Part shown: one piece after another, positions 62-22,226 of the stretch | Position numbering within the stretch: position 1 is the first letter of the stretch | Layout of the letters: each line of letters opens with the position of its first letter | Source: Nitrosopumilaceae archaeon | GTDB taxonomy: Archaea > Thermoproteota > Nitrososphaeria > Nitrososphaerales > Nitrosopumilaceae | Direction: 5' to 3' | Assembly: GCA_052389415.1 (NCBI GenBank) | Contig: JBQTHX010000016.1 | Span: 1-28,843 of the forward strand | DNA length: 28,843 nt | Notes under the pieces: generated by a model | What the model was told of the DNA's origin: nothing | The model's database searches: none | Seen by the model: only the letters and a program-made list of their open reading frames with translations | Position numbers and translations under genes: made by a program

Positions 62-2296
62 TTGGCTCACACATTCAAGGATAGTAACATAGTGGAATCA
101 AGGTCTGGTAGACTACTAAAGCTAACCATAGGTGTATCACTTATCACTCTATTTCTTTCAATTCTCACTCTGGTGACTATGGTATATTTTGGAAACTTTG
201 ATGGGAATCTAAAGTGGAATGCATATGGAATCGAATATGATCAAGCTGGCCAAATAATTTCATGGCTTGTAATGGGGATAATAGGAGGTTTTGCAATCTC
301 AGTAATACTTGGAATTTCCTATCTTGTAGTAAAAAAACGAAAAAGGGTTCCACAAAAAGATCAAAAACATGCGACTTTTCCATTAAATAATTCCGTAAAG
401 CCTTCGCCACCCGCAACAAAACCACAGGCGCCAATAGTAAACTTTGGAATAAAGACAATAAGTGAAGAGATAGCTACGGCAAATGCTCAAAAACAATCCG
501 CATTTTCAGAACTGACACAGATAAGATTCCAGATCGAGTCTTCAAGAACAAAACTCTTGGAGCTAAACTCACAGATAGAAAAGGCTCAAGCTGAGCTAAC
601 TGCTGTTCAAAAACAATCTTCAAGAAGAGATACTTTGAAAGAAAGAAGCTCAGAAATTGAACTGGCAAAGACAAAACTTTCGGATCTAAACTCACAGATA
701 CTAAAGGCACAAAGTGAGCTGGACTCTTTGCATAACCAGTTTTCACAAAAAGATGATGCTGTATCAGAGCTCAAAAAGACAAGATCAGAAATCGAGTCTG
801 CCAAAAAAAATCTCAACGGCCTAAACTCTCAAGTAGAAAAGACAAAATCCGATCTAGAGTCATTGAACAAAGAATTTGCCCAAAGAAAAGCTGAGATGTC
901 TGAACTTACTCAAACAAGAACACAAATCGAGTCTGCAAAGACTAGTCTCTCTGACCTAAATTCACAGATTGAGGCTGCAATAAGCGAATCACTTAGCTCA
1001 TTACAAGCTCAATATGACCAAAAGGACGCAGCTGGAAAGGATCTGGCAGAAACATTGTCACAGATGGAGGCATCCAAGAAAAAGATAGCTGACCTAAACT
1101 TGGAGATTGAAAAAGCAAAATCAGAACTTGATTCATTGCAAAAACAATATGCTCAAAAAGACGAAGCAGTAAAAGAACTCTCCAAGACACTCTTGGAGAT
1201 TGATTCAGCTAAGACAAACCTTGTTGAATTGAATTTGCAGATAGAAAAAGCAAAAACCGATCTAGACTCCCTACAAATACAATATTCGGAAAAAAATAAA
1301 GATCTCAACTTGCAGATAGACAAGGTAAAAACTCAACTAGAATCACTGCAAAAAGAATATGAACAAAAGGAAGCCATGTCATCAGATCTCTTACAGACTA
1401 GAACACAAATAGAGACTGCCAAGACAAACCTTGCTGAGCTAAACTCACAGATAGAAAAGACCAAAGCAGATATAGATTCACTACAAACGCAATATTCACA
1501 AAAGAATAAAGAACTAACTTTACAGATAGACAAGGCAAAATCAGAATTAGAGTTTCTACAAAAACAATATTCACAAAAAGACAAGGTCGTAGAAGAGCTG
1601 GAACATACCATGTCACAGGTTGAAGTGGCAAAAACAAAATTAACTGAATTAAACTCGCAGATAGACTCTGCAAACTCAGAGCTGGATTATTTACAAAAAC
1701 AATGTTTGCAACGAGATGCTGTTGTTGCTGAACTGACACAATCACGACAACAAATAGAATCTGCAAAAGCAAAACTGGCAGAGCTTATTTCTCAAATAGA
1801 TAGCGCAAAGGCAGAACTAGGCTCACTGGAGACTGAATTTGAGCATAAAGATGAGGTGGCCTCTGAACTAAAACAATCAAGAACACAAATCGAGTCTGCC
1901 AAGAGAAATCTTACGGTTCTTAACTCACAGATAGAAAAGGCAAAGTCTGATCTTGCATCCTTGCAGGAACAGTATTCTCAAAAAGAAGTAATAGTATCGG
2001 AATTGGCTCTGACAAAATCACAAATTGAATCGGCAAAGACAAATCTAAGTGATCTATTCACTCAGATTGATGAAGCCAAAGAAGATCTTCAATCCATACA
2101 AATTCAATATGTTCGCAGACAGGAAGATATCGTAACAGCAAAAAAAGAGCTTGAATTTATAGGAAAAGAACTATCAGTGCTCAGCCAGAAAGGATATCGA
2201 AAATCAAAAGAATCAGCATTGGATGAAAAGGATATTCAGAAAGGAATGGATAAACGTAGACTGGAATTCTTTAACTATCTGGCACAAAGACGGTAA
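62..2296 (+). CDS. membrane-anchored coiled-coil protein built from ~45-aa tandem repeats
   Basis: 744-aa ORF. The N-terminus has two hydrophobic segments (LLKLTIGVSLITLFLSILTLVTMVYF and IISWLVMGIIGGFAISVILGISYLVV), followed by a Pro-rich linker. After that come heptad-like units resembling ELTQTRTQIESAKTNLSDLNSQIEKAKSELDSLQKQYSQKDxxV. The start is uncertain: TTG at 62, first ATG at 179, which would remove the first hydrophobic segment. Confidence 0.6.
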   Translation: MAHTFKDSNIVESRSGRLLKLTIGVSLITLFLSILTLVTMVYFGNFDGNLKWNAYGIEYDQAGQIISWLVMGIIGGFAISVILGISYLVVKKRKRVPQKDQKHATFPLNNSVKPSPPATKPQAPIVNFGIKTISEEIATANAQKQSAFSELTQIRFQIESSRTKLLELNSQIEKAQAELTAVQKQSSRRDTLKERSSEIELAKTKLSDLNSQILKAQSELDSLHNQFSQKDDAVSELKKTRSEIESAKKNLNGLNSQVEKTKSDLESLNKEFAQRKAEMSELTQTRTQIESAKTSLSDLNSQIEAAISESLSSLQAQYDQKDAAGKDLAETLSQMEASKKKIADLNLEIEKAKSELDSLQKQYAQKDEAVKELSKTLLEIDSAKTNLVELNLQIEKAKTDLDSLQIQYSEKNKDLNLQIDKVKTQLESLQKEYEQKEAMSSDLLQTRTQIETAKTNLAELNSQIEKTKADIDSLQTQYSQKNKELTLQIDKAKSELEFLQKQYSQKDKVVEELEHTMSQVEVAKTKLTELNSQIDSANSELDYLQKQCLQRDAVVAELTQSRQQIESAKAKLAELISQIDSAKAELGSLETEFEHKDEVASELKQSRTQIESAKRNLTVLNSQIEKAKSDLASLQEQYSQKEVIVSELALTKSQIESAKTNLSDLFTQIDEAKEDLQSIQIQYVRRQEDIVTAKKELEFIGKELSVLSQKGYRKSKESALDEKDIQKGMDKRRLEFFNYLAQRR
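500..2160 (+). repeat. in-frame tandem repeat, ~135-bp (45-codon) unit, roughly a dozen diverged copies
   Basis: The protein blocks QIESAK(T/K)NL..LNSQIEKAK(S/T)(E/D)L(D/E)SLQ(K/E)QY(S/A)QK(D/E) recur at 45-aa spacing, with a few half-length units (KNKDLNLQIDKVKTQLESLQKEY). Boundaries are approximate. Confidence 0.7.
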
Positions 2297-2911: not shown

Positions 2912-2918
2912 TCTAAAC

Positions 2919-2942
2919 TAGTCCTTATCGGACTAATTTTTT
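2919..2942. terminator. hairpin plus T-run between the secreted-protein gene and the left casposon junction
   Basis: tagtcc (2919-2924) pairs with ggacta (2930-2935) across the 5-nt loop ttatc, and T6 follows at 2937-2942. It lies 8 nt after the stop at 2911. Archaeal termination commonly uses oligo-T. Confidence 0.4.
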
Positions 2943-2958
2943 ATTCTTTATCGATAAA
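2938..2958. repeat. left copy of target-site duplication (orphan copy of the aEF-2 3' end)
   Basis: tttttattctttatcgataaa at 2938-2958 is identical to 20031-20051. The reverse complement of ttattctttatcgataaa reads F-I-D-K-E-stop, the C-terminus of the aEF-2 ORF. Here it is detached from any ORF. Confidence 0.85.
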
Positions 2959-2994
2959 AATAGAATCCCCCTCAATTACGCCTAAAAATCTGCA
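2956..2994. repeat. left terminal inverted repeat (TIR-L)
   Basis: Sequence is aaaaatagaatccccctcaattacgcctaaaaatctgca. The reverse complement of 19997-20035 is aaaaatagaatccccctcgattacgcctaaaaatctgca, giving 38/39 identity. Weaker similarity continues about 11 nt inward (8/11). The outer A/T run overlaps the direct repeat, so the exact TIR/TSD border is ambiguous. Confidence 0.85.
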
Positions 2995-3262
2995 CATCGT
3001 CGTAATTGATTTATTCTCAAAAAACAAGAGTTACTGATCTCAACTGAATAAGAATGATGAAAAGTTTCAAAAAAGGTTAGCTGCTTATCAAATCGGAGCC
3101 ACTGCGTTTATCGCAATTGCTTCAGTTATCATATCCTTAGGTATTGTATTTACTCAGTTTGAAATTCTTCCAATAGATTCTTCATCAATTGATAATTCAA
3201 CCAGTAATAAAATACAGACCTGGACGAGTTCGGTTAGAGAAAGTGGTCAGACTCTCATATAT

Positions 3263-3649
3263 TTGGGCTCCGGATGGGTGATTGCTGGCATGGTTTTTTT
3301 CATGGTCCTAACTCTAATAGATAAATCAAAATCTAAGTTTAACAAATCTCGGAAAATAGTTCTTGTTGATGAAATGTATGATGGAAAAGACATAGAATTA
3401 GAGAAAAAGGGCTATGATGCATTTAGTGTAAAAAAACTTCGACTTAAAGGCGAACCGCTTCAATATGACTACTCAGTTTTAAAATATGTCGAAGAAAATA
3501 AAATGATCCTAATTACCGAAGATCCTGAGAATTATGGAGGTTGTCAAGAAAACAATCTTCCTTGCATTAAACTAGGACAAAATCCATCAATTGAAGAAAT
3601 CGTAAAAGAACTAGAATCTTTGAAAACAGAACATGACTCTAAAAGATGA
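3263..3649 (+). CDS. membrane segment plus PIN-like (DUF5615/Mut7-C-like) domain protein; possibly the 3' part of a frameshifted longer gene
   Basis: The C-terminal pattern KIVLVDEMYDG...GYDAFSV...DYSVLKYVEENKMILITEDPENY resembles the LLDENLP...G.DV....D.EIL..A..E.RILVT.D.DF pattern of small PIN-like domains. The frame is open upstream to 3038 with no ATG/GTG/TTG before 3263. Confidence 0.45.
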   Translation: MGSGWVIAGMVFFMVLTLIDKSKSKFNKSRKIVLVDEMYDGKDIELEKKGYDAFSVKKLRLKGEPLQYDYSVLKYVEENKMILITEDPENYGGCQENNLPCIKLGQNPSIEEIVKELESLKTEHDSKR

Positions 3650-3697
3650 TTAAAATCTACATACTTTTGTAAATTAACTTGTAGAAAATATTGATAA

Positions 3698-4123
3698 TTA
3701 TTGATAACAGGAATACCCATTTAATTTCTTTCTTAGAAGTTTTATAAAACCAAGAATTCCTATCATGATTCCCATCGATGCACCTATCAAACCTAGGGCA
3801 AAAATTGATGTGAAATGACCAAAAATTGATGCTTCATTATAAGTAAGATGAGGCGGAGATACTAACGCCGGAGTTACAAAGGGCCAGATAAATCCTGTGA
3901 GTTTATAGATATTTGCATTTCCTTCCAAACATACGTATGCTAAGTAAGAACTAACTAAAATTGACCCCAGACAGATGGTAAAAGAGATAAATTTTCTGGT
4001 TCCCAATTTTTGGGACAAATCATAGAGGAGTTTTAGACTGTTTAGAAGGAAAACTACAATTGCGAGATAATCTTTGATATCACTAATTCCTGGAAATCCA
4101 CTGAAGCGAATTGGGAAATTCAT
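3698..4123 (-). CDS. integral membrane protein (about 4 hydrophobic helices), unknown function
   Basis: 141-aa ORF with an ATG start and several 20-aa hydrophobic stretches. Confidence 0.5.
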   Translation of the reverse strand: MNFPIRFSGFPGISDIKDYLAIVVFLLNSLKLLYDLSQKLGTRKFISFTICLGSILVSSYLAYVCLEGNANIYKLTGFIWPFVTPALVSPPHLTYNEASIFGHFTSIFALGLIGASMGIMIGILGFIKLLRKKLNGYSCYQ

Positions 4124-4444
4124 TGATTTAATTTAAGGTTCTTCGGGTTAATAAAAATTTCACTAGATAAATTAGGATGAGATTAAACATAATCACGTAC
4201 CTTCAACATACTTGCAAGATGTTCCTTATTTTTTAGAACTATCCTTATTAGATTGATGTTGATACTTCTAATGTTGGACAATCAGCTTGTATACACCGTG
4301 ATTGGAGGAGTATTAGGTGGAATAGTAAAAACAATTTCAGATATGACAGTAGAATGGTTCAAAGAAATTCAAAAAAAATTATTAAAAGTGTAACAATAGA
4401 TGACACTTTTGAATTAATAAATTGTGAACTGTGACTCATGTTAA

Positions 4445-4828
4445 ATGAAGAGCAATAACAGATATTTTGGGAAATGGAATCAGGGCACAGGAATTACCAT
4501 GCCTGAAAGATTTTTAACAATTTTAGAATTTCAGAAAGATGGAAAAAAAGTAAAAGATAAACAAGGAAAAGATGCAGAAGTTTTGATCTGGTTAAACTCA
4601 AACAATGATATAGAAATAGCAAATCAGATATTGCCAAGAAAAAATTTGAATGGCATTGTTATTCAAAATCATTCCATAACAGTTCGTAGCAAATCATATG
4701 GAATAATAATTCCATACTCAATCATTCAAACCTACAAATTATTGAATAGAAAAGTCGTCGGATTTACAATTACCTGCAATGAATTTAATCATCTTGTTTT
4801 TCTTCCTCTTGAAAAAAGACACAAATAA
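4445..4828 (+). CDS. hypothetical protein
   Basis: 127-aa ORF with an ATG start. The N-terminal TGITMPERFLTIL weakly recalls AbrB/SpoVT-type swapped-hairpin motifs, which is not enough for a call. Confidence 0.45.
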   Translation: MKSNNRYFGKWNQGTGITMPERFLTILEFQKDGKKVKDKQGKDAEVLIWLNSNNDIEIANQILPRKNLNGIVIQNHSITVRSKSYGIIIPYSIIQTYKLLNRKVVGFTITCNEFNHLVFLPLEKRHK

Positions 4829-4829
4829 A

Positions 4830-4837
4830 TTTAAATA
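4830..4837 (+). promoter_or_regulatory. archaeal TATA-box-like element upstream of the RHH gene
   Basis: tttaaata lies ~35 nt upstream of the ATG at 4869. A ggtga SD-like element sits at 4862-4866. Confidence 0.35.
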
Positions 4838-4868
4838 GCACCATTGGTGTTAATTAATCTATGGTGAA

Positions 4869-5126
4869 ATGATGCAACGGATGAGCATTACGTTGGATGA
4901 TAATATTGCTAGAACACTAAGAGGAATACAAGGAAGATTAATTGAGAAATTTGAAAAAGACATTAGTTTTACAACCATTGTGAATACAGTACTTCTAGCA
5001 GGAGTTATTGGTACAGAAAGTTTTACAGAAAAAACGTGGACACTACTAAGTCAGTTTCTACATGAAGAGCAAATCAATCTGGATAAAGAAGGCCTTACGG
5101 ATAACTTTGTTAATCAACTAAAATAA
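4869..5126 (+). CDS. ribbon-helix-helix (CopG/Arc-like) DNA-binding protein, putative
   Basis: The N-terminus MSITLDDNIARTLRGIQGRLIEKF fits a beta-strand then helix RHH pattern. It is small (85 aa). Confidence 0.5.
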   Translation: MMQRMSITLDDNIARTLRGIQGRLIEKFEKDISFTTIVNTVLLAGVIGTESFTEKTWTLLSQFLHEEQINLDKEGLTDNFVNQLK

Positions 5127-5127
5127 T

Positions 5128-5430
5128 CTAATCAAAAAGAGACCTCTGGATCTTTTTTCGTAATCTCCCATTATTAAAAATATGATCTAATAGAGCAATT
5201 GTACCAACAAACAAAACTCCTGCTCCAAGTTTACTTTCAGACACATGTTTGTACAACGAAGTTGGAGATTCGTACGGGTCATGTTCATCATAATGAATGT
5301 TACATAACCTAGTATTTGGATCACATTCTGCGTGCCAATGACCATTTCTAAAATGGATCATTCCAAGTTTTTCTCCTAATGAAGGAGTCCATGTAGGATC
5401 GTTTTCAAAATCTTCAATTCTATAACTCAT
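5128..5430 (-). CDS. hypothetical protein with C-terminal hydrophobic segment
   Basis: 100-aa ORF with an aggtga SD-like sequence 7 nt upstream of the ATG (reverse complement of 5438-5443). It is co-oriented with 5456-5704. Confidence 0.5.
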   Translation of the reverse strand: MSYRIEDFENDPTWTPSLGEKLGMIHFRNGHWHAECDPNTRLCNIHYDEHDPYESPTSLYKHVSESKLGAGVLFVGTIALLDHIFNNGRLRKKIQRSLFD

Positions 5431-5455
5431 GATATATCACCTATAATAATGAGAG

Positions 5456-5704
5456 TTATCTCTGAAAAGTTTTGTTATCTCTTCCAAAATTTTGTCCAAT
5501 ATAATCAGCAAATGATTTTTCAGCACCAATGCGTAAAATACTGCCTAATTTCCCAATTCCTTGATCGCTAGAAGATTCAACAATTCCACCAATAATCCAA
5601 GTAAAAAATTGTCCTCCTAATCTATTGTAATTACCGTTAAGATCTTTTTCTGGCAACTGATTAAGTTTGTTCCTTATCACATCACTAGGTTCATTTTTCC
5701 CCAT
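5456..5704 (-). CDS. hypothetical protein
   Basis: 82-aa ORF. A TATA-like tttaaata on its strand lies ~30 nt upstream. Confidence 0.45.
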   Translation of the reverse strand: MGKNEPSDVIRNKLNQLPEKDLNGNYNRLGGQFFTWIIGGIVESSSDQGIGKLGSILRIGAEKSFADYIGQNFGRDNKTFQR

Positions 5705-5729
5705 GTTGTTATCTCTATTATTTTGCAGC

Positions 5730-5737
5730 TATTTAAA
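5730..5737. promoter_or_regulatory. symmetric TATA-like element in a divergent promoter region
   Basis: The plus strand reads tatttaaa and the minus strand reads tttaaata. It lies between divergent starts at 5704 (-) and 5775 (+). Confidence 0.3.
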
Positions 5738-5774
5738 CGTGCAGATTTGCAAATCCACGTTATATCAACATATA

Positions 5775-5996
5775 ATGTTTTTAAGACCATCGTTCGTGAT
5801 GATCTTAATGGTAACTGTTAGATGTGAAAATATAAATCCGATGTATTGGGCTTGGGTAGCAGAATATGCACGAAAAAGGCGAATAGAAAGATGCAAAGCA
5901 TTAGAAATGATCATAGAGGAGCATATGAAGTTCACAAAGAGAGAATATGAAAGATCATTAGAGGAAGGACTAATTGCCAAGAAAAAGAAGAAGTAG
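5775..5996 (+). CDS. small RHH-like protein, putative
   Basis: The tracked ORF 5667-5996 overlaps the start of 5456-5704. The internal ATG at 5775 follows the TATA-like element. NINPMYWAWVAEYARKRRIERCKALEMIIEEHMKF fits a strand-helix-helix layout. Start choice is uncertain. Confidence 0.35.
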   Translation: MFLRPSFVMILMVTVRCENINPMYWAWVAEYARKRRIERCKALEMIIEEHMKFTKREYERSLEEGLIAKKKKK

Positions 5997-6171
5997 AGAA
6001 GACGACTGGATTGAAGATCTGTTGAAATTGGGATTGGGTGTACTAGCCATATCTTTTCTTGCAAAATTAGCTGAAGGAACACAACAGGTTACAATATGCC
6101 CATATTGTAATAGCAAAATCGGAAAATTTGCTAGAACCTGTCCTAATTGTAGGAATACCTTAAATTTATAA
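5974..6171 (+). CDS. membrane-associated zinc-ribbon protein
   Basis: CPYCNSKIGKFARTCPNCRN is a CxxC...CxxC ribbon, preceded by the hydrophobic LLKLGLGVLAISFLAKL. The only available start is TTG, and it overlaps the previous ORF by 23 nt in an A-rich run. Confidence 0.45.
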   Translation: MPRKRRSREDDWIEDLLKLGLGVLAISFLAKLAEGTQQVTICPYCNSKIGKFARTCPNCRNTLNL

Positions 6172-6258
6172 TTACAGTCAAAATACCTTCATCATTATTT
6201 TAAATTAATATCATTGAATCAAGCTAAACCTCTTTAGTAGCAAGAGAGTTGTAACTTC

Positions 6259-7941
6259 ATGGCAAATATTTCGGAACATTTCCCAACTGATTTTCAACCT
6301 AGGCCCATCCAGAACGAGATCTTAAAGTATATTCAATCACAAATAGATTCTGGATTTAAAACAATAATTCTTTCAGCACCTACAGGAGTAGGAAAATCAC
6401 TCATAGCAGCAACTTTGGCCCGATATTTTGGTAGTTCTTTTATAGTTACAGCCTCAAAGCATTTACAGGATCAATACATAAAGGATCTTCAATTTCTCAA
6501 ACCTGTTAAAGGTAAATCAAATTTTCCTTGCCTCAAACTCATGGAGCATGAGAAGGTAAAAAGCGAACAAGTGGCCTTGCAGAAAGGATTAACTTGTGAA
6601 AAAGGAGTTTGCCAAGAAACAAAAGAAAAAAAGGGAAAAAAAGTAATAGAAATTTGTAAATTTAAACCAAAGATAGAAGAGTGCGTTAACGATCATTCTG
6701 ATGATGGGTATTGTCACTATTATAAACAGAAATATCTTGCACTCAATTCAGATCATTCTCTATGGAATTATTCTTCATATTTTCAGTTAATGAAATTTAG
6801 CAGAGATGTTTTTGCTGATTATATTGATAGACCGGTTGCCATTTTTGATGAAGCCCACAAAATCGAAGATCAAATAATACAATTTGTTGGAATCGACATA
6901 TATGATGGAAATTTAAGAGAATGTGGTATTGATGTAAAAAGCTATGCACTAGACAACATTGATCTTGTGGCACAACTAACTGAAGATCTCGCATTATCAT
7001 ATGCAAAACAACTTAAAGAGATTAAAAAAAGTAGATCTTTTCTTAGAAATCCAGATTATAGAATAATTGCAAAACTTGAAGGTAAGTATGACCGTATGAT
7101 AAATGCAAGTATCGAAATAAAATCAAATAAAGATAATTTTATCATTGATGAACCTAAAAAAGATGATAGGGGTAATTTCAAATCTTTATCGATCAAACCA
7201 CTTGATATTTCAAAATATGTAGGTTCACTTTTTGATATTCCCACTAGAATTTTCATGTCTGCCACAATTGACAAAGATAGTTTTTGTGAGAACACAGGAA
7301 TAGCACTCTCGGAGGTTGCTTTTGTTGATACTCCAAAATCACCATTTTTGCTTGAAAATAGAAGAGTGAATTTTCTAGATGTGAGAAAATTAAGTCAAAA
7401 ATCAAGCGAGGATGATGAATTAACAGTCATAAGAAAAATTGACGAAATATTGACAAAGCATTCAAAACAAAGAGGTTTGATCCTGACCTCTTCAGAAAGT
7501 AGATGTCATAGAATAAGAAATAATCTCTCACCACAAAATATGAAGAGAATTAGAATATGTCATAGCATGAACCCGAATGGAAAAACACAAGATCAGATAT
7601 TGCAAGAACATTACAAGGATGAAACAGGAGTATTGCTTTCATCTTCGTTATGGGAAGGTGTTGATTTAAAGGATGATCTATCCAGATTTCAGATTATTGC
7701 AAAGACGCCATATCCTGGTCTTGGTGAAAAAAGAGTTAAAATTAAAATGGAAAAATACCCTTTATGGTATAAATCACAGACAATAATGAAGTTGTTACAA
7801 GGTCTAGGTCGTTCAATTAGAAGTGAAAAAGACTGGGCCATAACATATGTCCTTGATTCTGCAGCTCTTGAATTACTGAATCGATCAAAGTCAATGATCC
7901 CAAAAGCATACTATGATATTTTAGGATGGAAAACTAACTAG
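6259..7941 (+). CDS. XPD/Rad3/DinG-family DEAH-box helicase with Cys-rich insert
   Basis: Walker A is LSAPTGVGKS and the DEAH box is IFDEAHKIED. The element KGKSNFPCLKL resembles GR.NY.C, and further Cys residues (CEKGVC, EICKF, EECV, GYCHYY) lie between motifs I and II, where XPD/DinG carry the 4Fe-4S cluster. The C-terminal motifs are SSSLWEGVDL and QGLGRSIRSEKDWAITYVLD. Confidence 0.8.
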   Translation: MANISEHFPTDFQPRPIQNEILKYIQSQIDSGFKTIILSAPTGVGKSLIAATLARYFGSSFIVTASKHLQDQYIKDLQFLKPVKGKSNFPCLKLMEHEKVKSEQVALQKGLTCEKGVCQETKEKKGKKVIEICKFKPKIEECVNDHSDDGYCHYYKQKYLALNSDHSLWNYSSYFQLMKFSRDVFADYIDRPVAIFDEAHKIEDQIIQFVGIDIYDGNLRECGIDVKSYALDNIDLVAQLTEDLALSYAKQLKEIKKSRSFLRNPDYRIIAKLEGKYDRMINASIEIKSNKDNFIIDEPKKDDRGNFKSLSIKPLDISKYVGSLFDIPTRIFMSATIDKDSFCENTGIALSEVAFVDTPKSPFLLENRRVNFLDVRKLSQKSSEDDELTVIRKIDEILTKHSKQRGLILTSSESRCHRIRNNLSPQNMKRIRICHSMNPNGKTQDQILQEHYKDETGVLLSSSLWEGVDLKDDLSRFQIIAKTPYPGLGEKRVKIKMEKYPLWYKSQTIMKLLQGLGRSIRSEKDWAITYVLDSAALELLNRSKSMIPKAYYDILGWKTN

Positions 7942-17489: not shown

Positions 17490-18572
17490 TCATGTGTAAT
17501 CTGGCAATTGATTCACATTATTTTCTAGTTTGGCAATCTCGACGACTTGACTCTGATCGAGAATAGGTTGAAAAGCCTTAGTTGGTTTATCGTCCTGTCT
17601 ATTGATTTTCATCCAGAACAAAATCTGATACGAATCGTTTATTGTATCTATTTCTTTTTTTATAAATTCATCTTTGATTCTATCAATATGTTTCCAGATA
17701 AGACCTTCGATAGATTTAGTTCCAACACTGTGAAGACCCTGAAAGATGAAAACATCTCGCTCTGGTCTGTTTCCAGCATATCTTATTCTATTAGGAATTT
17801 TTGTTAAAACGGCATATTCTTCATCAATTTGAGAATTATTATCAACCTGTGGGCTCTTTGGCAAGTCAGATTTTTTTGTATCGTAAAATAGGTACCGAAA
17901 TTTTGTGATGTGCGGATCAGGTAGTACAGTATCCCCTCCAATATCTTCGATTTTTTGTTTTACCTGTACAGGATCGTTATAGTCAATTTCAAATTCCCAT
18001 CTTAGTATTCCCTTGTATCTGTCACTCAAAAATAATCTGTCATCGCCTTTGATATCATATCCAAGAGCTTTCTGAGAAGTTAATGTGGATTTTGCACTGC
18101 CTATTGCTAATATGTTTTCTGCTAAATGGGCATCCTCTAACTTACAATTATCCGTACTTAGTGTTTTGATATCCTCAAACACATGAGTACCTGTTGCCTT
18201 TGCTATGTTTCTAATAATCGGCAGATTAAGGAACCATTTGTTGACAAGTCGCCTTACCGCCTCTTTGTTTCCTGGATGAATGAAGTTTTCAAACTGTGGA
18301 TGTACATACCCAGGATCACATACTACATTATGTAAATGTGAAAAATAACTATCAACTAATTGTTGTTTTCTCCTACGATTCATGATATGATCTATCAATC
18401 TTTCTACACCTGCTTCAACACCTAGAGGAATATTAGGAATAAATTCACCAGTTGTGAAATTAATCATAGTATTTTCTAGGTTTCTGTATATCGGAATTGG
18501 ATCAGGAATAAAAAAGTATTTTTTAGATGAATTAAAGCCGAAGACGCACCTAGAAAGGTCAAATGGTATCAA
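17490..18572 (-). CDS. hypothetical protein (360 aa), directly downstream of cas1
   Basis: Long ORF on the same strand as Cas1, with a 51-nt gap. The C-terminal EYAVLTKIPNRIRYAGNRPERDVFIFQGLHSVGTKSIEGL looks like an alpha/beta strand-loop-helix element. No family recognised. Confidence 0.6.
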   Translation of the reverse strand: MIPFDLSRCVFGFNSSKKYFFIPDPIPIYRNLENTMINFTTGEFIPNIPLGVEAGVERLIDHIMNRRRKQQLVDSYFSHLHNVVCDPGYVHPQFENFIHPGNKEAVRRLVNKWFLNLPIIRNIAKATGTHVFEDIKTLSTDNCKLEDAHLAENILAIGSAKSTLTSQKALGYDIKGDDRLFLSDRYKGILRWEFEIDYNDPVQVKQKIEDIGGDTVLPDPHITKFRYLFYDTKKSDLPKSPQVDNNSQIDEEYAVLTKIPNRIRYAGNRPERDVFIFQGLHSVGTKSIEGLIWKHIDRIKDEFIKKEIDTINDSYQILFWMKINRQDDKPTKAFQPILDQSQVVEIAKLENNVNQLPDYT

Positions 18573-18623
18573 TTATTATTTATTTACAGAATTGTGTGAT
18601 AAAAACAGATCATTCAGCTGTAA

Positions 18624-19709
18624 TCAATTTTGTATAAGATTTATCATCACAATACAATAATCAGCTAAATTTTGTATTGTAATCTTTACTATAGTAATTT
18701 CTTGACACATTGACATTCCATTAGACATTTTCAAACCATGCTTAAACTTGTATGGTCTTTCTGCCTGAAATTTCCTTTCTAATATTTCCAAGAATCTTTT
18801 AATTAAATCCGAATCAAGTACCACTTTTCCTTCTCTTGTCCACGCATATTCATTTTTCTTAATGGACTGATCATAATTTTGATGATTTGCAACTTTATAC
18901 ACCGAATATTCAACTAACCACCTAAAAGGTTCAATCAAGTCATACACTAGAGCCTGAAACGAAGTGTGAGTTCTATGATAAAATCCATAGTAAGGATCTA
19001 AACCTAATCCATTCACAAACTTGGCAATTTCTCCTGCTAGTACAGTATAGCCATAATTGAGAAGCGCATTAATCACATCTGAAGCATATCTATTGGATAA
19101 CCTAATTCCACCACCATGGCGAGATTCAAACATATACTTTGGATCAAAGAGTTTAGCATAATTATTGAAATAGATATGTCCACATCTTGATTCTGTAGTT
19201 AGAAAATTACGATATTCTGTAAAATTCTCTACTTGTTTTAGATATAGTTCTAGTTGTGAAATTCCTTTCTGTAAATACTCTCTTTCTAAAGATTTTAGGA
19301 AATTAATCTGACTGTTTAATTTTTCAGTTAAAATCCATTTTCTAAGATACAGAACTTTGTCAGGATCACGAAATGTATCATACTGACCAATTCTATATCC
19401 AGTTGCTGTAGTACTAGACATTACATTATTCATATTAGAAATTAAATTCCCAAATGTGTCAGTTAATATTACATTGACATTTTTCTCAGAAAGTAGTTTT
19501 ATCGCATCTGTAGAAACATAACCACGACCAGAAATCACAATTTTTTCATAAGGGATCTGAGTAACAAACCATTCTTCCTTTTCAGATTTGTTTGATAAAA
19601 CATCTAATCCATTTTTTAAAATAACACGATTATCCTTTAGATGAATGGCTACTCCATAGCCACGAAGTAACTTGATGTTATAGTGATTTTTGTGCCCCTT
19701 TAGAGTCAT
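18624..19709 (-). CDS. cas1: Cas1 homolog without CRISPR context (casposase)
   Basis: The N-terminus is LRGYGVAIHLKDNRVILKNG. The conserved Glu context is TTESRCGHIYFNNY. ASDVINALLNYGYTVLAGEIAKFVNGLGLDPYYGFYH carries the catalytic His context. ALVYDLIEPFRWLVEYSV matches the D/E..EpFR motif. Length is 361 aa. Confidence 0.92.
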   Translation of the reverse strand: MTLKGHKNHYNIKLLRGYGVAIHLKDNRVILKNGLDVLSNKSEKEEWFVTQIPYEKIVISGRGYVSTDAIKLLSEKNVNVILTDTFGNLISNMNNVMSSTTATGYRIGQYDTFRDPDKVLYLRKWILTEKLNSQINFLKSLEREYLQKGISQLELYLKQVENFTEYRNFLTTESRCGHIYFNNYAKLFDPKYMFESRHGGGIRLSNRYASDVINALLNYGYTVLAGEIAKFVNGLGLDPYYGFYHRTHTSFQALVYDLIEPFRWLVEYSVYKVANHQNYDQSIKKNEYAWTREGKVVLDSDLIKRFLEILERKFQAERPYKFKHGLKMSNGMSMCQEITIVKITIQNLADYCIVMINLIQN

Positions 19710-19953
19710 GTTTTACCTTTTTCAAGTATTTTTTCTCTAAGGCATTTACGTAATCACTGTATGCAAGAATCAATTTTGTCATTGTTTCCACCACTGGAGT
19801 CAGATAGTGAAACGAATCGACTAGCGGAGTTGTTGAATTACCAGCAAGTTTAGCCTCTGTACTTTTTGTATTCCACGTGCTACATTTTTCTAAAAAATCT
19901 ATCTTACGTTTCTTGAGTTCTTCTCTTAGATCTTCTAACTTTGTTTGAATCAT
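19678..19953 (-). CDS. small helical protein at the casposon end, upstream of and overlapping cas1
   Basis: 91-aa ORF with an ATG start. Its 3' end overlaps the cas1 start by 32 nt, and it begins ~45 nt inside the right TIR. Confidence 0.45.
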   Translation of the reverse strand: MIQTKLEDLREELKKRKIDFLEKCSTWNTKSTEAKLAGNSTTPLVDSFHYLTPVVETMTKLILAYSDYVNALEKKYLKKVKHDSKGAQKSL

Positions 19954-19996
19954 ACTTCATTGAATGATATTTTAAACAAAATACTTTACGAGGACA

Positions 19997-20035
19997 TGCA
20001 GATTTTTAGGCGTAATCGAGGGGGATTCTATTTTT
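19997..20035. repeat. right terminal inverted repeat (TIR-R)
   Basis: tgcagatttttaggcgtaatcgagggggattctattttt is the reverse complement of 2956-2994, with one mismatch. Confidence 0.85.
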
Positions 20036-20051
20036 ATTCTTTATCGATAAA
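20031..20051. repeat. right copy of target-site duplication (functional 3' end of aEF-2)
   Basis: Identical to 2938-2958. Here it is continuous with the aEF-2 ORF (stop codon at 20034-20036 on the minus strand). Confidence 0.85.
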
Positions 20052-22226
20052 TTCGTCAGCGTTAGGTGGTTCCGGACTTAGTCCTTTTCTTTTTCTAATC
20101 TCTGACATTATTGTTAACAAGACAGAGTTTGGAACTGGTGTCCATGCTTTAAAGTGAGTATTCCACATGGCCTTTCCAGCTGTCTGACCCCTCATCACCT
20201 CGGAAAGATCAAAAGTTTCTGAAGCAGGAAGCTCTCCTGTTAGAATATGGACCACACCTTTTTGCTCCATGTTCAAAACCTTCCCTCGTTTTCCTGAAAT
20301 AACACCTGCAACATTTCCAATCATCTCCTGTGGCACCCTAACCTCGATTCCAAGTGTAGGTTCCAAAAGAACTGGTTGTGCTAAAAGCATAGCTCCCATG
20401 CACGCACGTCTTGACGCAGGACCAAGCTGCGACAGACCTCTATGTGCTGGATCCTCGTGTGGTACAAAATGATGGAAGACAAACTTGCATCCTCTGACCT
20501 GTTCCTTTGCCAGAGGTCCTTCTTTCATGGTGTCTTCAAATCCAGAAAGTATAGAATCAGTTGATTCTTGGATAAACTGCACACCCTTTGTGCCGTCTAC
20601 CATCACATTTCCCCTTGTATCAAAACGCATTACGCGTTTTGCTTCATCTCTGTCCCAACCAGCATTTCTTAAGATTTCTGCAACCTCTTTTTTGTCCTTG
20701 TACTCGTTTAGTGTACCGTTTCTAATCATTTCTGCAATTTTTTCATCCAAGGGTTCAACTCTCATAAAGATCTTGTTGTGTCTGTTTGGAGATTTTGCCA
20801 TGATAGGACCTGCCTGTGCCCTTATTGTCTCTCTATAATTGATCAAGGGCTGTGATGTTACAATCTGTACACCTGCATCAGCAATAAGCGATGTTGCAAT
20901 CTCTAGATGCAAGACACCCATTCCTGCAATCACTGTCTCTCCGCTTTCTTCGTTTATCTTTACAACAAGGTTTGGATCCTCGATTGTTATTCTGCGCAAG
21001 GCTTCAACTAGTTTTGGAAGATCTTTTGGATGCTTGGGCTCAACAGCAATTTGAACGACTGGTTCAGAAACATACTGGATTCCTTCAAATGTGTGAGTTC
21101 CTGCAACACTTGATAGAGTCTGTCCAGCTCTTGCATGTTCTAATCCCAAAAGTGCTGGGATGTTTCCTGCAGCAAGTTCGCCAACCATCTCACGTTGGTT
21201 TCCCATGAAAAAGTTGACTGATTGGATTCTTCCTTCTCTTTTGGTATCTATGATGTTTATTCTATCTCCATCTTTTATTCTGCCAGAAAATAATCTCCCA
21301 ATAGCTACTGGACCTGCAGCAGGATCAACTGTCATGTTTACAATCATCATGACAGTAGGACCGTTGTCATCACAATTCAAAAGCGCCTTTCCCATGTCTG
21401 ATTCTAAATCACCTTTCCAAATTTTTGGAATCCTGTATTTTTGTGCAACATCAGGGGACGGATGATGTTTTACCACCATTCCAAGTACTGCATCATACAA
21501 TGGCGCCTTTTCCGCAAGTGCTTTGATGTCTCCGCCCTCTGAATAAGCCGCATAGATGTCTTTGAAAGAGATTCCCTTCTTTTTCATGACATCTGCATTA
21601 AATCCCCATCTGTCCTTTGCAGAACCAAAAGAGACGCTTCCGTCCTGAATGCTTACCTTCCACTTTTCTTTATACTCTGGTTCTGCGTAAATGTCAATTA
21701 ATCTGTTAAAATTTGTAATAATTTCTACTAGCCACTCTTGCATCTTATCTGGAGTCAGTCTTAGTTCCTTTATGAGACGGTCTATCTTGTTGATGTACAA
21801 AACCGGTCTTACTCTTTCTTCTAGAGCTTGTCTTGTTACAGTCTCTGTCTGTGTCATTATTCCTTCCACAGAATCTGATACCACAACTGCGCCATCGATG
21901 GCCCTGAGGCTTCTTGTGACACGTCCAGTAAAGTCAATGTGTCCTGGGGTGTCAATCATGTTGATTACGTATTCCTGACCTTCTGCTTCATAAAGCAAGG
22001 TAACATTTGCCTGAACGATTGTCATCTGCCTGTCCTGCTCTAATTTCATAGAGTCCAACGCAAGGGCTTGACCAGCAACTGATGGGCTGATAATTCCACT
22101 TGATGCCAAAAGGCTATCGCTCATTGTTGTCTTTCCATGGTCTACGTGAGCAATGACTCCAAAGTTTCGGATGTTCTTCTTGTTTCCAATTATCTTTAGG
22201 ATCTGTTCTGTGGCCTTGTATTTCAT
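20034..22226 (-). CDS. fusA: translation elongation factor 2 (aEF-2)
   Basis: GTPase motifs are AHVDHGKTT, DTPGHIDF and NKIDR. The diphthamide-loop-like motif is HEDPAHRG. The 730-aa length is typical of aEF-2. Confidence 0.97.
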   Translation of the reverse strand: MKYKATEQILKIIGNKKNIRNFGVIAHVDHGKTTMSDSLLASSGIISPSVAGQALALDSMKLEQDRQMTIVQANVTLLYEAEGQEYVINMIDTPGHIDFTGRVTRSLRAIDGAVVVSDSVEGIMTQTETVTRQALEERVRPVLYINKIDRLIKELRLTPDKMQEWLVEIITNFNRLIDIYAEPEYKEKWKVSIQDGSVSFGSAKDRWGFNADVMKKKGISFKDIYAAYSEGGDIKALAEKAPLYDAVLGMVVKHHPSPDVAQKYRIPKIWKGDLESDMGKALLNCDDNGPTVMMIVNMTVDPAAGPVAIGRLFSGRIKDGDRINIIDTKREGRIQSVNFFMGNQREMVGELAAGNIPALLGLEHARAGQTLSSVAGTHTFEGIQYVSEPVVQIAVEPKHPKDLPKLVEALRRITIEDPNLVVKINEESGETVIAGMGVLHLEIATSLIADAGVQIVTSQPLINYRETIRAQAGPIMAKSPNRHNKIFMRVEPLDEKIAEMIRNGTLNEYKDKKEVAEILRNAGWDRDEAKRVMRFDTRGNVMVDGTKGVQFIQESTDSILSGFEDTMKEGPLAKEQVRGCKFVFHHFVPHEDPAHRGLSQLGPASRRACMGAMLLAQPVLLEPTLGIEVRVPQEMIGNVAGVISGKRGKVLNMEQKGVVHILTGELPASETFDLSEVMRGQTAGKAMWNTHFKAWTPVPNSVLLTIMSEIRKRKGLSPEPPNADEFIDKE

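Follow-up and report, generated by a model that had tools for sequence, protein, structure and literature searches.

The window analysed here (the whole stretch of DNA, 28,843 nucleotides in length) comes from an uncultured ammonia oxidiser of the Nitrosopumilaceae (Nitrosotalea-like), and holds an element that has inserted within the 3' end of aEF-2 (Table 1). [quoted passage not shown] The flanks of the element are housekeeping genes. No CRISPR or tandem array, Rfam family or tRNA was found in the window, and Pfam, PHROGs, NCBIfam and PADLOC scans of the ORFs gave no Cas2, Cas4, integrase or virion family, in agreement with the original prediction, which had been made from the sequence alone and had seen no CRISPR array, Cas2, Cas4, integrase or virion gene.

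Table 1. Features of the element and its target gene, in order along the window.
Feature	Positions	Strand	Basis or remark
Left TSD copy, distal to ef-2	2938..2958	.	Exact repeat TTTTTATTCTTTATCGATAAA
Left TIR	2954..3026	+	Core 2960-2994 (+); TIR profile match 2958-3007, E 2e-7
128-aa ORF, weak DUF5615-like	3263..3649	+	Pfam E 0.0015, below cut-off
Five small ORFs	3698..5704		3698-4123 -, 4445-4828 +, 4869-5126 +, 5128-5430 -, 5456-5704 -
DinG/XPD-type SF2 helicase, 560 aa	6259..7941	+	Pfam, PHROGs, PADLOC
108-aa ORF downstream of polB, C-terminal hydrophobic segment	8118..8444	-	No family match
Protein-primed PolB (pPolB), 627 aa	8473..10356	-	Pfam DNA_pol_B_2, PHROGs, motifs
139-aa basic protein directly upstream of polB, overlaps polB start	10353..10772	-	Conserved family-1 gene
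Two ORFs, 283 aa and 195 aa, upstream of STAND gene	10723..12165	+	No Pfam/PADLOC/NCBIfam/PHROGs match
NLR-like STAND NTPase, 615 aa	12327..14174	+	N-terminal DUF4062 (TIR-like NADase), then NACHT
HEAT/ARM-type alpha-solenoid, 741 aa	14171..16396	+	Start overlaps STAND stop codon
HEPN-domain protein, 311 aa	16391..17326	-	Pfam HEPN 3e-10
360-aa orphan protein adjoining cas1	17490..18572	-	No family match (Pfam, PADLOC, NCBIfam, PHROGs)
Casposase, compact Cas1, 361 aa	18624..19709	-	Pfam Cas_Cas1; triad E173/H245/E260
91-aa ORF upstream of cas1, overlaps cas1 start	19678..19953	-	Gene call in independent assemblies; no family match
Right TIR	19965..20037	-	Core 19997-20031 (-); abuts ef-2 stop codon
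Right TSD copy	20031..20051	.	Gives ef-2 last six codons + TAA stop
aEF-2, target gene, 730 aa	20034..22226	-	Six EF-G/EF-2 Pfam domains

Boundaries and insertion site

Each end of the element is marked by a copy of a 21-bp direct repeat, the target-site duplication (TSD), with 0 mismatches between the copies and 0 such repeats expected by chance. It is made up of the last six codons of aEF-2, the stop codon and AAA. The duplication keeps the ef-2 reading frame, with the aEF-2 stop codon falling within the right repeat, and the C-terminus (...EFIDKE*) is the same as in relatives. In the left copy, the ef-2 3' end is present as a displaced duplicate. Compared with the TSD of the casposon NitNF5-C2, 19 of the 21 positions are identical.

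The terminal inverted repeats (TIRs) found by a repeat search of the window have arms of 73 nt with 82% identity, and the arms diverge past about 40 nt. The 35-nt core is ATAGAATCCCCCTC[A/G]ATTACGCCTAAAAATCTGCA, the two copies differing at one base; there are exactly two occurrences, with 0 expected from 100 shuffles. A TIR profile, which was derived from the related loci themselves, also finds exactly two copies within the window, and none internal to the element. Both the near-perfect inverted repeats and the perfect flanking direct repeat described in the original prediction are therefore real features of the sequence. At their inner edges the direct and inverted repeats have 5 to 7 A/T bases in common, which leaves the exact transposon termini ambiguous; such an overlap is typical among casposons (PMC4046053). 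The same sequence, ef-2/TIR junction included, is present at 99.98% identity in two Logan assemblies that are independent and come from other sequencing runs, which excludes an artefact of a single assembly. The element has a GC content of 0.313 (flanks 0.365 and 0.393), falling to 0.27-0.30 over 12-17 kb, compared with about 0.33 in the core.

The location at the ef-2 3' end is the most diagnostic feature of the element, and one that is absent from the original prediction. Thaumarchaeal family-1 casposons are known from published work to prefer this target, those integrated in ef-2 being NitAR1-C1, NitAR2-C1, NitNF5-C2 and NitDev-C2 (Krupovic 2014, PMC4046053; Krupovic 2019, PMC6563490). A casposon end abuts ef-2 in 56 of 76 related genomes (74%), with few of those elements intact: near-full cas1 and polB are kept in only 2-3 of the 24 TIR-positive loci that have at least 9 kb downstream. 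The relics at other ef-2 sites have a truncated cas1, that of the present copy being full length.

Casposase and replication genes

Cas1 matches Pfam Cas_Cas1 with an E-value of 9e-48 (163 bits, cut-off 22), and in alignment its catalytic residues E173, H245 and E260 correspond to those of the Methanosarcina mazei casposase, whose structure is solved (6OPM). This casposase is its best solved relative, at 98 bits, with the best CRISPR Cas1 at 86 bits. Among the matches listed, NitEve-C1 supplies the only published family-1 casposase identified by name, and identity to it is 63%; identity to any database protein is at most 89%. Generic Cas1 models were passed, and every score against the CRISPR-subtype-specific Cas1 models of NCBIfam was far below the cut-off. 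For the orphan protein adjoining cas1, only 3 strong relatives were found among 1.84 billion cluster representatives.

The polymerase matches Pfam DNA_pol_B_2 (E 2e-29) and phrog_11768 (E 1e-63), and contains all of the exonuclease motifs (ExoI D41xE, ExoII N86LQYD, ExoIII Y193xxxD) and polymerase motifs (A D279INSAYP, B K409IVLNSMYG, C TDS465). The ATDS of motif C is unusual, yet is common to all relatives examined, and is therefore a family trait. The Cas1 and family B polymerase assignments of the original prediction, which had suggested both profile searches, are upheld by them. The pPolB is 59-69% identical to the pPolBs of other ef-2 casposons, and its closest viral relatives are His1 and His2, a kinship already published for family-1 casposons (PMC4046053).

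With the ORF at the corresponding place in four related loci (L035, L059, L078 and L086), the basic protein encoded directly upstream of polB has 43-51% identity, and with that in NitEve-C1 32%. A terminal-protein role for the ORF in this position is a published proposal (PMC4046053), and the protein found here may be such a terminal protein. Three small genes have been called universal in family 1, and only one of them is detectable by BLASTP in the present element.

A Walker A motif (APTGVGKS), a Cys-rich insert and a DEAH box (residue 197) are present in the helicase, which matches Helicase_C_2 (9e-23), DEAD_2 and phrog_2488 (2e-86). PADLOC matches it to typeIV_DinG (3e-63), but the NCBIfam model for Csf4 gives 27 bits against a cut-off of 400. 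Its identity to tailed-virus helicases is about 30%. It is a generic, virus-like DinG-type helicase and a likely replication accessory.

Cargo of the element

Passenger DNA accounts for about 13 kb, and its most informative part is a two-gene module, consisting of the STAND NTPase and its HEAT partner. The NTPase has Pfam matches to DUF4062 (3e-18) and NACHT (2e-7), and PADLOC matches to Avs2 (3e-12) and PDC-M54A (1e-13); the Avs2 match is limited to the NTPase region. Residue E91 (in SVTAIEY), the Walker A motif GERGIGKS and the Walker B motif IIDS are invariant in 12 family members of 35-67% identity. DUF4062 has been characterised experimentally as a TIR-like NADase with a catalytic Glu and a role in anti-phage defence, and TEP1 and NWD1 have the DUF4062-NACHT architecture (bioRxiv 10.64898/2026.05.01.722283; 10.64898/2026.06.25.731849). 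The AF2 model of the partner protein is all-alpha with a mean pLDDT of 82.7, and its Foldseek matches are CAND1, PP2A-A, SF3B1 and karyopherins; the partner is thus confidently predicted to be a HEAT solenoid.

In all loci examined the two genes stay together, the start of one overlapping the stop of the other. The module recurs among other casposons and defence islands: it is present in two other casposon contexts (L086/87 and L088), in another TIR-bounded element (L084/85), and in neighbourhoods rich in R-M, toxin and IS genes (L089 and L090). The DUF4062-NACHT protein is likely to be an NAD-destroying immune sensor, and we would put the chance that the STAND-HEAT cargo works as a defence system at about even. 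It would then be a split NLR/Avs-like abortive-infection sensor, in which the HEAT solenoid would recognise an invader protein, the NACHT domain would oligomerise and DUF4062 would deplete NAD+, so shielding the host, and hence the casposon, from viruses or rival elements. The sensor here is a separate protein, unlike that of canonical Avs/NLR proteins.

The HEPN protein is a full-length homolog of the HEPN protein of NitEve-C1 (27% identity, E 2e-21), and a search for the Rx4-6H catalytic motif found none in it. At the left end, homologs of the DUF5615-like ORF, with 49-52% identity, lie downstream of ef-2 in four other loci (L007, L011, L047 and L055). Pfam and PHROGs gave no significant match for the five small ORFs, and PADLOC gave one weak BrxA-like match (E 0.0015), for the ORF at 4445-4828.

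It is worth adding that the description of the element as cargo-rich in the original prediction is correct as to the amount of passenger DNA, but that this is not exceptional, because family-1 casposons range in published size from 6.4 to 19.4 kb (NitNF5-C1), with the present 17.1 kb falling within the range, and because NitEve-C1 also carries HEPN and a NACHT ATPase. Elements of this kind, and insertion at this site, have been described before; what is new is the cargo, namely the STAND-HEAT module, the HEPN protein and the virus-type DinG-like helicase.

Identity, mobility and comparison with known systems

We conclude with high confidence that positions 2938-20051 are a single family-1 casposon (thaumarchaeal, with protein-primed PolB) located at ef-2. 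The same family had been proposed originally, and the similarity of Cas1 to NitEve-C1, the ef-2 target and the DNA_pol_B_2 match agree with it. In no related genome is the 17 kb found as conserved core sequence. The casposon is apparently structurally intact, with neither the Cas1 triad nor any Exo or Pol motif missing. The published casposon model, together with biochemical work on family 2, suggests how the core would operate. The casposase would bind the TIR ends and join them, at staggered positions, to the ef-2 terminus, and gap repair would then duplicate the target, restoring the stop codon of ef-2 and placing a displaced copy at the opposite end of the element. For replication the element would use its own pPolB, with the product of the small ORF directly before polB as the probable primer.

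The original prediction regarded the insertion as recent and possibly mobile. The core genes, TIR core and TSD are indeed intact, and we consider it somewhat probable that the element can transpose today. The search for empty sites and other copies that had been suggested found neither: there is no empty site in 80 related genomes, because none of them shares the left-flank genes, and no second copy was found. Nor did the JGI metagenome or IMG/VR collections contain an exact match to the reconstructed empty-site junction or to the TIR core, and mobility is therefore something that we infer, rather than see directly. The perfect duplication dates the insertion less sharply than it might, because the ef-2-side copy is coding sequence under selection.

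The leading alternative is a genuine family-1 casposon that is now an immobile, fixed resident, kept for its cargo or tolerated, and not recently active. We consider this unlikely. In its favour, besides the lack of an empty site or second copy, the TIR arms are just 82% identical over their 73 nt, and most related ef-2 sites hold decayed elements (the 56 of 76 with a TIR, and the 2-3 of 24 that are near-full), from which it follows that residents commonly persist and decay in place. However, the core ORFs here are all full length with intact catalytic residues, cas1 is not truncated as it is in relics elsewhere, the TIR cores are one base apart, and the duplication is perfect even in the copy that is not under coding selection.

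It is decidedly less probable that the 17 kb is a composite, whether of a small core casposon and an independent mobile defence island or of two fused elements, with boundaries that do not delimit one transposing unit. Relatives with the same core are only 6.5-8.4 kb (L059 and L078), the GC content drops across 12-17 kb, and the STAND-HEAT pair is present outside recognisable casposons (L089 and L090). Against this, the TIR profile finds no internal copy, Pfam, PADLOC, NCBIfam and PHROGs detect no integrase or transposase inside the element, and published family-1 elements reach 19.4 kb. In L086/87 the pair lies between the pPolB and Cas1 of another casposon, and the module therefore travels within TIRs as ordinary cargo.

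It is very improbable that the element is an integrated His1/His2-like or polinton-like virus or plasmid whose polymerase is protein-primed and which merely carries a Cas1 gene. The viral relatives of pPolB, the phage family of the helicase (phrog_2488) and the many ORFs without assigned function would suit it, but PHROGs and Pfam detect no capsid, packaging ATPase or other virion family for any ORF, and the TIR, TSD, ef-2 site specificity and Cas1 similarity to a known casposase fit the definition of a casposon. That Cas1 is a CRISPR adaptation enzyme, with its array and Cas2 outside the window, can be dismissed as exceedingly improbable despite the NCBI annotation 'CRISPR-associated endonuclease Cas1' and the generic models passed, since array and Cas2 are absent throughout the 28.8 kb, the flanks hold housekeeping genes, all subtype-specific models are below cut-off, the gene lies within the TIR/TSD boundaries and adjoins pPolB, and its closest characterised relatives are casposases.

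As a family-1 casposon, the element shares with the others in ef-2 the compact Cas1, the pPolB, the small ORF upstream of polB, TIRs that begin ...AAAAATAGAATCCCCC, and the 21-bp duplication of the ef-2 3' end, which overlaps the TIR and keeps the ef-2 frame. It differs in its size (NitAR1-C1, NitAR2-C1, NitNF5-C2 and NitDev-C2 are 6.4-13.1 kb), in having two of the three 'universal' small genes undetectable, and in having the DinG-like helicase, the DUF4062-NACHT protein with its HEAT partner, and a Nitrosotalea-like host. NitEve-C1, from Ca. Nitrososphaera evergladensis SR1 (L083), has a Cas1 63%, a pPolB 39% and a terminal-protein-like ORF 32% identical to those here, a homologous HEPN protein of about 310 aa near cas1, and a NACHT-type STAND ATPase as cargo. 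However, NitEve-C1 is intergenic, its HEPN protein keeps the Rx4H motif that is lost here, and its ATPase, a single protein of 1116 aa that combines NACHT with pentapeptide repeats, has neither DUF4062 nor significant similarity to the 615-aa STAND protein.

The closest relative found is an unpublished casposon in GCA_023265135.1 (L086/L087), which has the same order of terminal-protein-like ORF, pPolB (69%), DUF4062 STAND (48%), HEAT (47%) and Cas1 (58%), and likewise a TIR followed by an ef-2-derived repeat. Unlike the present element, it is part of an array, where it faces a second casposon head to head, and is without the DinG-like helicase or HEPN gene, and the gene of about 360 aa adjoining its cas1 is unrelated to the orphan here. 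Family-2 casposons and the casposases known from biochemistry and structure (Aciduliprofundum boonei; Methanosarcina mazei, PDB 6OPM) share the Cas1 fold with its Glu/His/Glu triad, TIRs, a TSD and site-specific integration beside a gene 3' end; the RNA-primed-type PolB, C-terminal HTH domain of Cas1, tRNA-gene target and conserved HNH nuclease gene are theirs only.

Like the defence systems with a DUF4062 TIR-like NADase (Swarozyc, Evangelion) and DUF4062-NACHT proteins (TEP1, NWD1, NPHP3), the STAND protein has an N-terminal DUF4062 with the E-Y-motif Glu, followed by NACHT, and like Avs/NLR-like STAND systems it matches Avs2 and PDC-M54A over the NTPase region and is found on mobile elements and defence islands. 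It differs from both in its archaeal host, in being borne by a casposon, and in having the repeat 'sensor' as a separate HEAT-solenoid gene instead of fused WD40, TPR or other C-terminal domains. Finally, the casposon resembles the CRISPR-Cas adaptation module in its homologous integrase and polarised insertion beside a fixed 'leader' (the ef-2 end), and the tandem casposon arrays of relatives, with a duplicated target between successive elements, resemble a CRISPR array; in contrast to CRISPR-Cas adaptation, there are no Cas2, array or spacers, and the inserted unit is a 17-kb self-replicating element.

Ends and target site of the casposon

The element is bounded by a perfect 21-bp direct repeat, TTTTTATTCTTTATCGATAAA, with no further near-match in the window and none expected in shuffled sequence. 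Just inside lie inverted-repeat arms of 73 nt (82% identity), and their 35-nt core, the heart of the terminal inverted repeat (TIR), differs at one position between the arms and occurs at only two sites in the window; the end sequence includes ...CCCCCTCAATTACGCC... The direct and inverted repeats overlap by 5-7 A/T bases, and for this reason the sequence does not fix the exact termini and allows a stagger of between 9 and 21 bp. Such overlap is common in casposons (Krupovic et al. 2014, PMC4046053). The size is 17,072 bp between the repeats, or 17,114 bp with both direct-repeat copies, and the GC content is 0.313, lower than that of the flanks (0.365 and 0.393). The same sequence, right junction included, recurs at 99.98% identity in two Logan assemblies made from other sequencing runs, and an artefact of a single assembly is thereby excluded. 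Both kinds of repeat noticed in the original prediction are thus real.

The 55 nt downstream of the ef-2 stop in related genomes served to build a TIR profile. This profile matches the window exactly twice, at the two ends of the element, and finds no internal TIR or tandem structure in the window, so that a composite reading of the 17 kb is rejected. Given these matches, and with one cas1 and one polB, the 17 kb is treated as one transposing unit.

The right direct repeat holds the last six codons of aEF-2 and its TAA stop, and the insertion is therefore in the 3' end of ef-2, a site which the original prediction overlooked. The duplication restores the ef-2 reading frame. The 3' end of ef-2 is the preferred target of thaumarchaeal family-1 casposons (PMC4046053; PMC6563490), being the commonest though not the universal integration site of the family, and it is the one used here. 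The published target-site duplication (TSD) of NitNF5-C2, TTTTTACTCTTTATCAATAAA, is likewise 21 bp and is identical to the present repeat at 19 of 21 positions, its TIR starting ATCAATAAAAATAGAATGCCCCCC (Krupovic et al. 2019 supplementary table, PMC6563490); in length and sequence the repeat matches both NitNF5-C2 and NitAR1-C1.

The right flank is ordinary ammonia-oxidiser chromosome, with menaquinone biosynthesis genes, a plastocyanin-like protein and an aminotransferase. In the left flank, a perfect hairpin, TAGTCCTTATCGGACTA, lies between the left repeat copy and a convergent gene for a 148-aa secreted protein, and was probably the original terminator region common to ef-2 and its neighbour before the insertion. 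Further out is a 744-aa coiled-coil protein with about eleven 45-aa (135-bp) repeats, whose Pfam matches are only to filament and coiled-coil families and which has no homolog beside ef-2 in any of 80 related loci.

Positions of features in the window and in related loci (L numbers)
Locus	Feature	Position	Strand	Remarks
Window	Coiled-coil protein	62-2296	+	
Window	Hairpin	2915-2937		
Window	Direct repeat, left and right copies	2938-2958; 20031-20051		
Window	Inverted-repeat arms	2954-3026; 19965-20037		
Window	First ORF inside left TIR, 128 aa	3263-3649	+	Weak DUF5615-like match
Window	DinG/XPD-type helicase, full length	6259-7941	+	Walker A, DEAH box, Cys-rich insert
Window	Protein-primed-type PolB, 627 aa	8473-10356	-	DNA_pol_B_2 at 2e-29; phrog_11768 at 1e-63
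Window	TP-like ORF, 139 aa, overlaps polB start	10353-10772	-	Equally placed in five other casposons
Window	STAND NTPase, 615 aa	12327-14174	+	N-terminal DUF4062 at 3e-18, then NACHT at 2e-7
Window	HEAT-repeat partner, 741 aa	14171-16396	+	Start overlaps STAND stop codon
Window	HEPN protein, 311 aa	16391-17326	-	Full-length homolog of NitEve-C1 HEPN protein, E 2e-21
Window	Casposase (Cas1), 361 aa	18624-19709	-	Pfam Cas_Cas1 at 9e-48
Window	aEF-2 (translation elongation factor)	20034-22226	-	Six EF-G/EF-2 domains
L007; L011; L047; L055	Homologs of first ORF	21859-22125; 16357-16626; 11353-11619; 10754-11017		
L084 (same in L085)	TIR-profile match	5879-5927		
L084 (same in L085)	STAND + HEAT pair and GmrSD/HEPN_Swt1 gene	9015-13029		
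L088	STAND + HEAT pair, cyclase-domain gene, truncated Cas1	10001-16099		
L016; L045; L063	TIR-like sequence at ef-2 stop, examples	12194-12247; 12194-12246; 6092-6145		
L078; L086	Tandem arrays	20565-20689; 16747-16856		Also L049, L054, L013, L028
L049; L054; L026; L042	Short elements	12194-13759; 5354-7262; 12194-13944; 12194-14907		
L006, L014, L015, L034, L037, L038, L041, L066, L081	Contig ends near TIR			

Core genes, family assignment and mobility

Cas_Cas1 is the sole Pfam match in the casposase (residues 18-311), which is compact, with no fused HTH or Zn-binding domain and no extra domain of any kind. In alignments with 6OPM and 4N06, residues E173, H245 and E260 fall on the catalytic positions, and the reading of this ORF as Cas1 is borne out. 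Among solved structures the M. mazei casposase 6OPM is its best match, ranking above all CRISPR Cas1 structures, and all of the NCBIfam CRISPR-subtype-specific Cas1 models fall far below cut-off. It is 63% identical to the casposase of NitEve-C1 (Ca. Nitrososphaera evergladensis SR1) and has more than 1300 close relatives. These comparisons place the protein with the family-1 casposases and not with CRISPR-associated Cas1. The exact sequence is found in an NCBI MAG labelled Nitrosopumilaceae archaeon, and the next relative is at most 89% identical; this is therefore not a published casposon. A CRISPR-Cas adaptation module is rejected, since Rfam, tRNA and tandem-repeat scans of the window found no CRISPR array (and no tRNA or Rfam family), and searches of the ORFs with Pfam, PADLOC, NCBIfam and PHROGs found no Cas2, Cas4, integrase or virion family, small ORFs being included for virion genes. 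The scans agree here with what had been seen by eye.

Every exonuclease and polymerase motif is present in the protein-primed family B polymerase (pPolB), and the profile match and the full motif set uphold the first description of the ORF. Motif C (residues 463-467; window 9815-9829 region) reads ATDS instead of the canonical DTDS. Polymerase decay was considered as an explanation and is rejected: the first Asp is replaced by Ala also in the three other aligned pPolBs (L035, L059 and L078), and a variant common to all of the aligned casposon polymerases is therefore a family trait. A PDB sequence search gave no match. The nearest viral relatives of the polymerase are the haloarchaeal viruses His1 and His2, an affinity already published for family-1 casposon polymerases (PMC4046053). 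The TP-like ORF is 32-51% identical to the same-position ORFs in five other casposons, and the gene just upstream of pPolB has been proposed to encode the terminal protein (PMC4046053).

Taken together, the Cas1, the pPolB, the TIRs, the TSD, the small gene upstream of pPolB and the ef-2 site support the original family-1 call, and the element is a family-1 casposon, to all appearance intact, at the canonical site in ef-2. At 17.1 kb it is large, yet inside the published family-1 range of 6.4 to 19.4 kb (Krupovic et al. 2019, PMC6563490). The core genes common to L035, L059, L078, L086 and NitEve-C1 (complete or partial elements) are only Cas1, pPolB and the TP-like ORF; for two more small genes reported to be universal in family 1, which are short and divergent, BLASTP against the same five (E 0.05) found no counterpart.

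The intact genes, together with the near-perfect TIR core and the perfect duplication, point to a recent or still competent element, and from these we infer that it may be mobile. This part of the original prediction stands as a sequence-based argument, while the searches found neither an empty site nor an extra copy. Among 80 species-level loci in an EF-2-anchored comparison, no homologs or DNA of the left flank were found, so that no exact empty site could be shown; the reconstructed 38-nt empty junction, GGACTAATTTTTTATTCTTTATCGATAAATTCGTCAGC, was not found as an exact match among JGI metagenome contigs, nor was the 35-nt TIR core, used to search for other copies, among metagenome or IMG/VR contigs.

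The CRISPR adaptation machinery has been proposed to descend from casposons. To our knowledge no branch other than family 1 has a protein-primed polymerase, and we know of no biochemical study of a family-1 casposase. The element leaves the known picture of casposons unchanged. Being intact, with clean ends and a 21-bp target defined in ef-2, it offers casposase, TIR and target together as substrates for the first such biochemistry.

Cargo genes and the STAND + HEAT pair

The STAND NTPase and its HEAT-repeat partner form the cargo module that connects a self-synthesising transposon with the DUF4062-NACHT architecture. PADLOC matches the NTPase region of the former to Avs2 (3e-12) and PDC-M54A. 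In 12 aligned family members (35-67% identity), the Glu of SVTA[IL]E[YF] (E91) is invariant, as are Walker A (GERGIGKS) and Walker B (IIDS). Domains of the DUF4062 family act in anti-phage defence as TIR-like NADases that rely on a catalytic Glu, and human TEP1, NWD1 and NPHP3 have the DUF4062-NACHT architecture; active NADase in this architecture was shown only in 2026, for bacterial defence and for the human vault protein TEP1 (bioRxiv 10.64898/2026.05.01.722283, 10.64898/2026.06.25.731849). The N-terminal effector of the present protein is accordingly assigned to DUF4062 by homology, NADase activity being established only for the homologs. A relationship to the NACHT ATPase of NitEve-C1 is rejected, there being no significant similarity.

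The HEAT partner is predicted by AlphaFold2 to be an all-alpha solenoid (mean pLDDT 82.7), which Foldseek matches to the HEAT/ARM scaffolds CAND1, PP2A-A, SF3B1 and karyopherins, with no enzymatic domain found. In Avs/NLR STAND systems the C-terminal repeat sensor is part of the same polypeptide, whereas here it is encoded by a gene of its own, translationally coupled to that of the STAND protein.

Relatives of either protein are rare (15 for STAND and 5 for the partner in the searches), and in every locus examined the two genes lie side by side, the start of one overlapping the stop of the other. In another, unpublished casposon (L086/L087, GCA_023265135.1) the pair lies between pPolB and Cas1. 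In L084 and L085 it lies inside another element, which begins with a TIR-profile match adjoining an RNA 3'-phosphate cyclase (RTC) gene; the two proteins are 67% and 60% identical to the window pair, and a GmrSD/HEPN_Swt1 gene accompanies them. This may be a casposon-type element at a target other than ef-2, on a contig that ends before any cas1 or polB. In L089 and L090 the pair occurs amid restriction-modification, toxin and IS genes. A further casposon-linked context, with a nucleotide cyclase as neighbour, was seen in L088, where the pair is followed by a guanylate/adenylate-cyclase-domain gene and then a truncated Cas1 (261 aa).

From this association with defence or mobile-element neighbourhoods we propose an antiviral role for the pair. 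As rare genes of casposons and defence islands, paired in every locus examined, the two are proposed to form a split NLR/Avs-like sensor, in which the solenoid would bind a trigger, the NACHT domain would then oligomerise, and the DUF4062 domain would deplete NAD+. The module is recurrent, and we know of no earlier description of it from archaea or from casposons; an archaeal, split, casposon-borne version would widen the NADase story.

Among the other cargo, the helicase fits phage helicase family phrog_2488 at 2e-86, is about 30% identical to those of archaeal and bacterial tailed viruses, and matches the PADLOC 'type IV-A associated DinG' model at 3e-63. Identity as the type IV CRISPR protein Csf4 is rejected: TIGR03117 gives 27 bits against an NCBIfam cut-off of 400, so that the helicase is not Csf4, and there are no csf genes. 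The likeliest role would be as a replication accessory. The HEPN protein has no Rx4-6H motif (R.{4,6}H) anywhere; where its NitEve-C1 homolog has RARLLH it has R-x4-Y, and RNase activity seems doubtful. The 360-aa ORF beside cas1 is an orphan, with three strong relatives in an exhaustive search of 1.84 billion cluster representatives, and homology to the equally placed 363-aa ORF in L086 is rejected, the two having no similarity. About ten further ORFs gave no significant match to any family. The first ORF inside the left TIR has homologs (49-52% identical) downstream of ef-2 in four genomes, and may be a recurrent gene of such elements.

The ef-2 end in related genomes

A TIR-profile match (E < 0.01) begins at the ef-2 stop codon in 56 of the 76 species-level Nitrosopumilaceae, Nitrosotalea and Nitrosotenuis loci that have sequence beyond ef-2, a count that is partly circular in that the profile was seeded from the same loci. 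The window TIRs and the published TIRs, all outside the seed set, also match the profile, and no match was found upstream of ef-2 in the approximately 1.1 Mb searched. The consensus of this TIR-like sequence is AAATGGAATCCCCCCC..ACGC..AAAAAT.TGC..TCGTAA. Of the TIR-positive loci, 24 extend at least 9 kb downstream; just 2-3 of these retain a near-full cas1 and polB, and about nine others retain fragments only. Most ef-2 sites are thus occupied, and intact autonomous copies are in the minority. Sites that look truly empty include L004, L005, L011, L021, L058, L069 and L073. Most Nitrosopumilaceae genomes therefore have a casposon end, usually a relic, fused to ef-2, which matters for annotation and assembly in this ecologically important group.

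Many MAG contigs end some 0-170 nt past the ef-2 stop, within or just after the TIR, which suggests that casposon ends make assemblies break, owing to repeats or strain variation. In several loci the inverted counterpart of the TIR and a further copy of the ef-2 end bound elements of 1.5-8.4 kb. The short TIR-bounded elements at ef-2 (1.5-2.7 kb) are too small for Cas1 and pPolB, and are thus candidate non-autonomous (MITE-like) casposon derivatives.

Casposons and relics were also observed in tandem arrays downstream of ef-2, with a copy of the ef-2 3' end between successive elements. In L078 and L086 an element is followed by an ef-2-derived repeat and then by the next element, the sequence between elements in L078 being ...GGGGGGATCTCATTT TTATCGACAAAGAGTAA AAATGCAAAGCCCCCCC...

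A tentative joint reading, which we consider possible rather than probable, would be that the family-1 casposons of ammonia-oxidising archaea carry an undescribed two-component NLR-like immune system (DUF4062 NADase-NACHT plus HEAT sensor), that the ef-2 end is a polarised 'landing pad', and that the cargo possibly serves inter-element competition. New casposons would insert beside ef-2 and push older ones outward to decay, and the cargo may serve competition between elements for the single ef-2 site as well as antiviral defence. The tandem layout resembles that of CRISPR arrays, in which insertion is leader-proximal, and the resulting element-repeat-element array would mirror the CRISPR leader and array.
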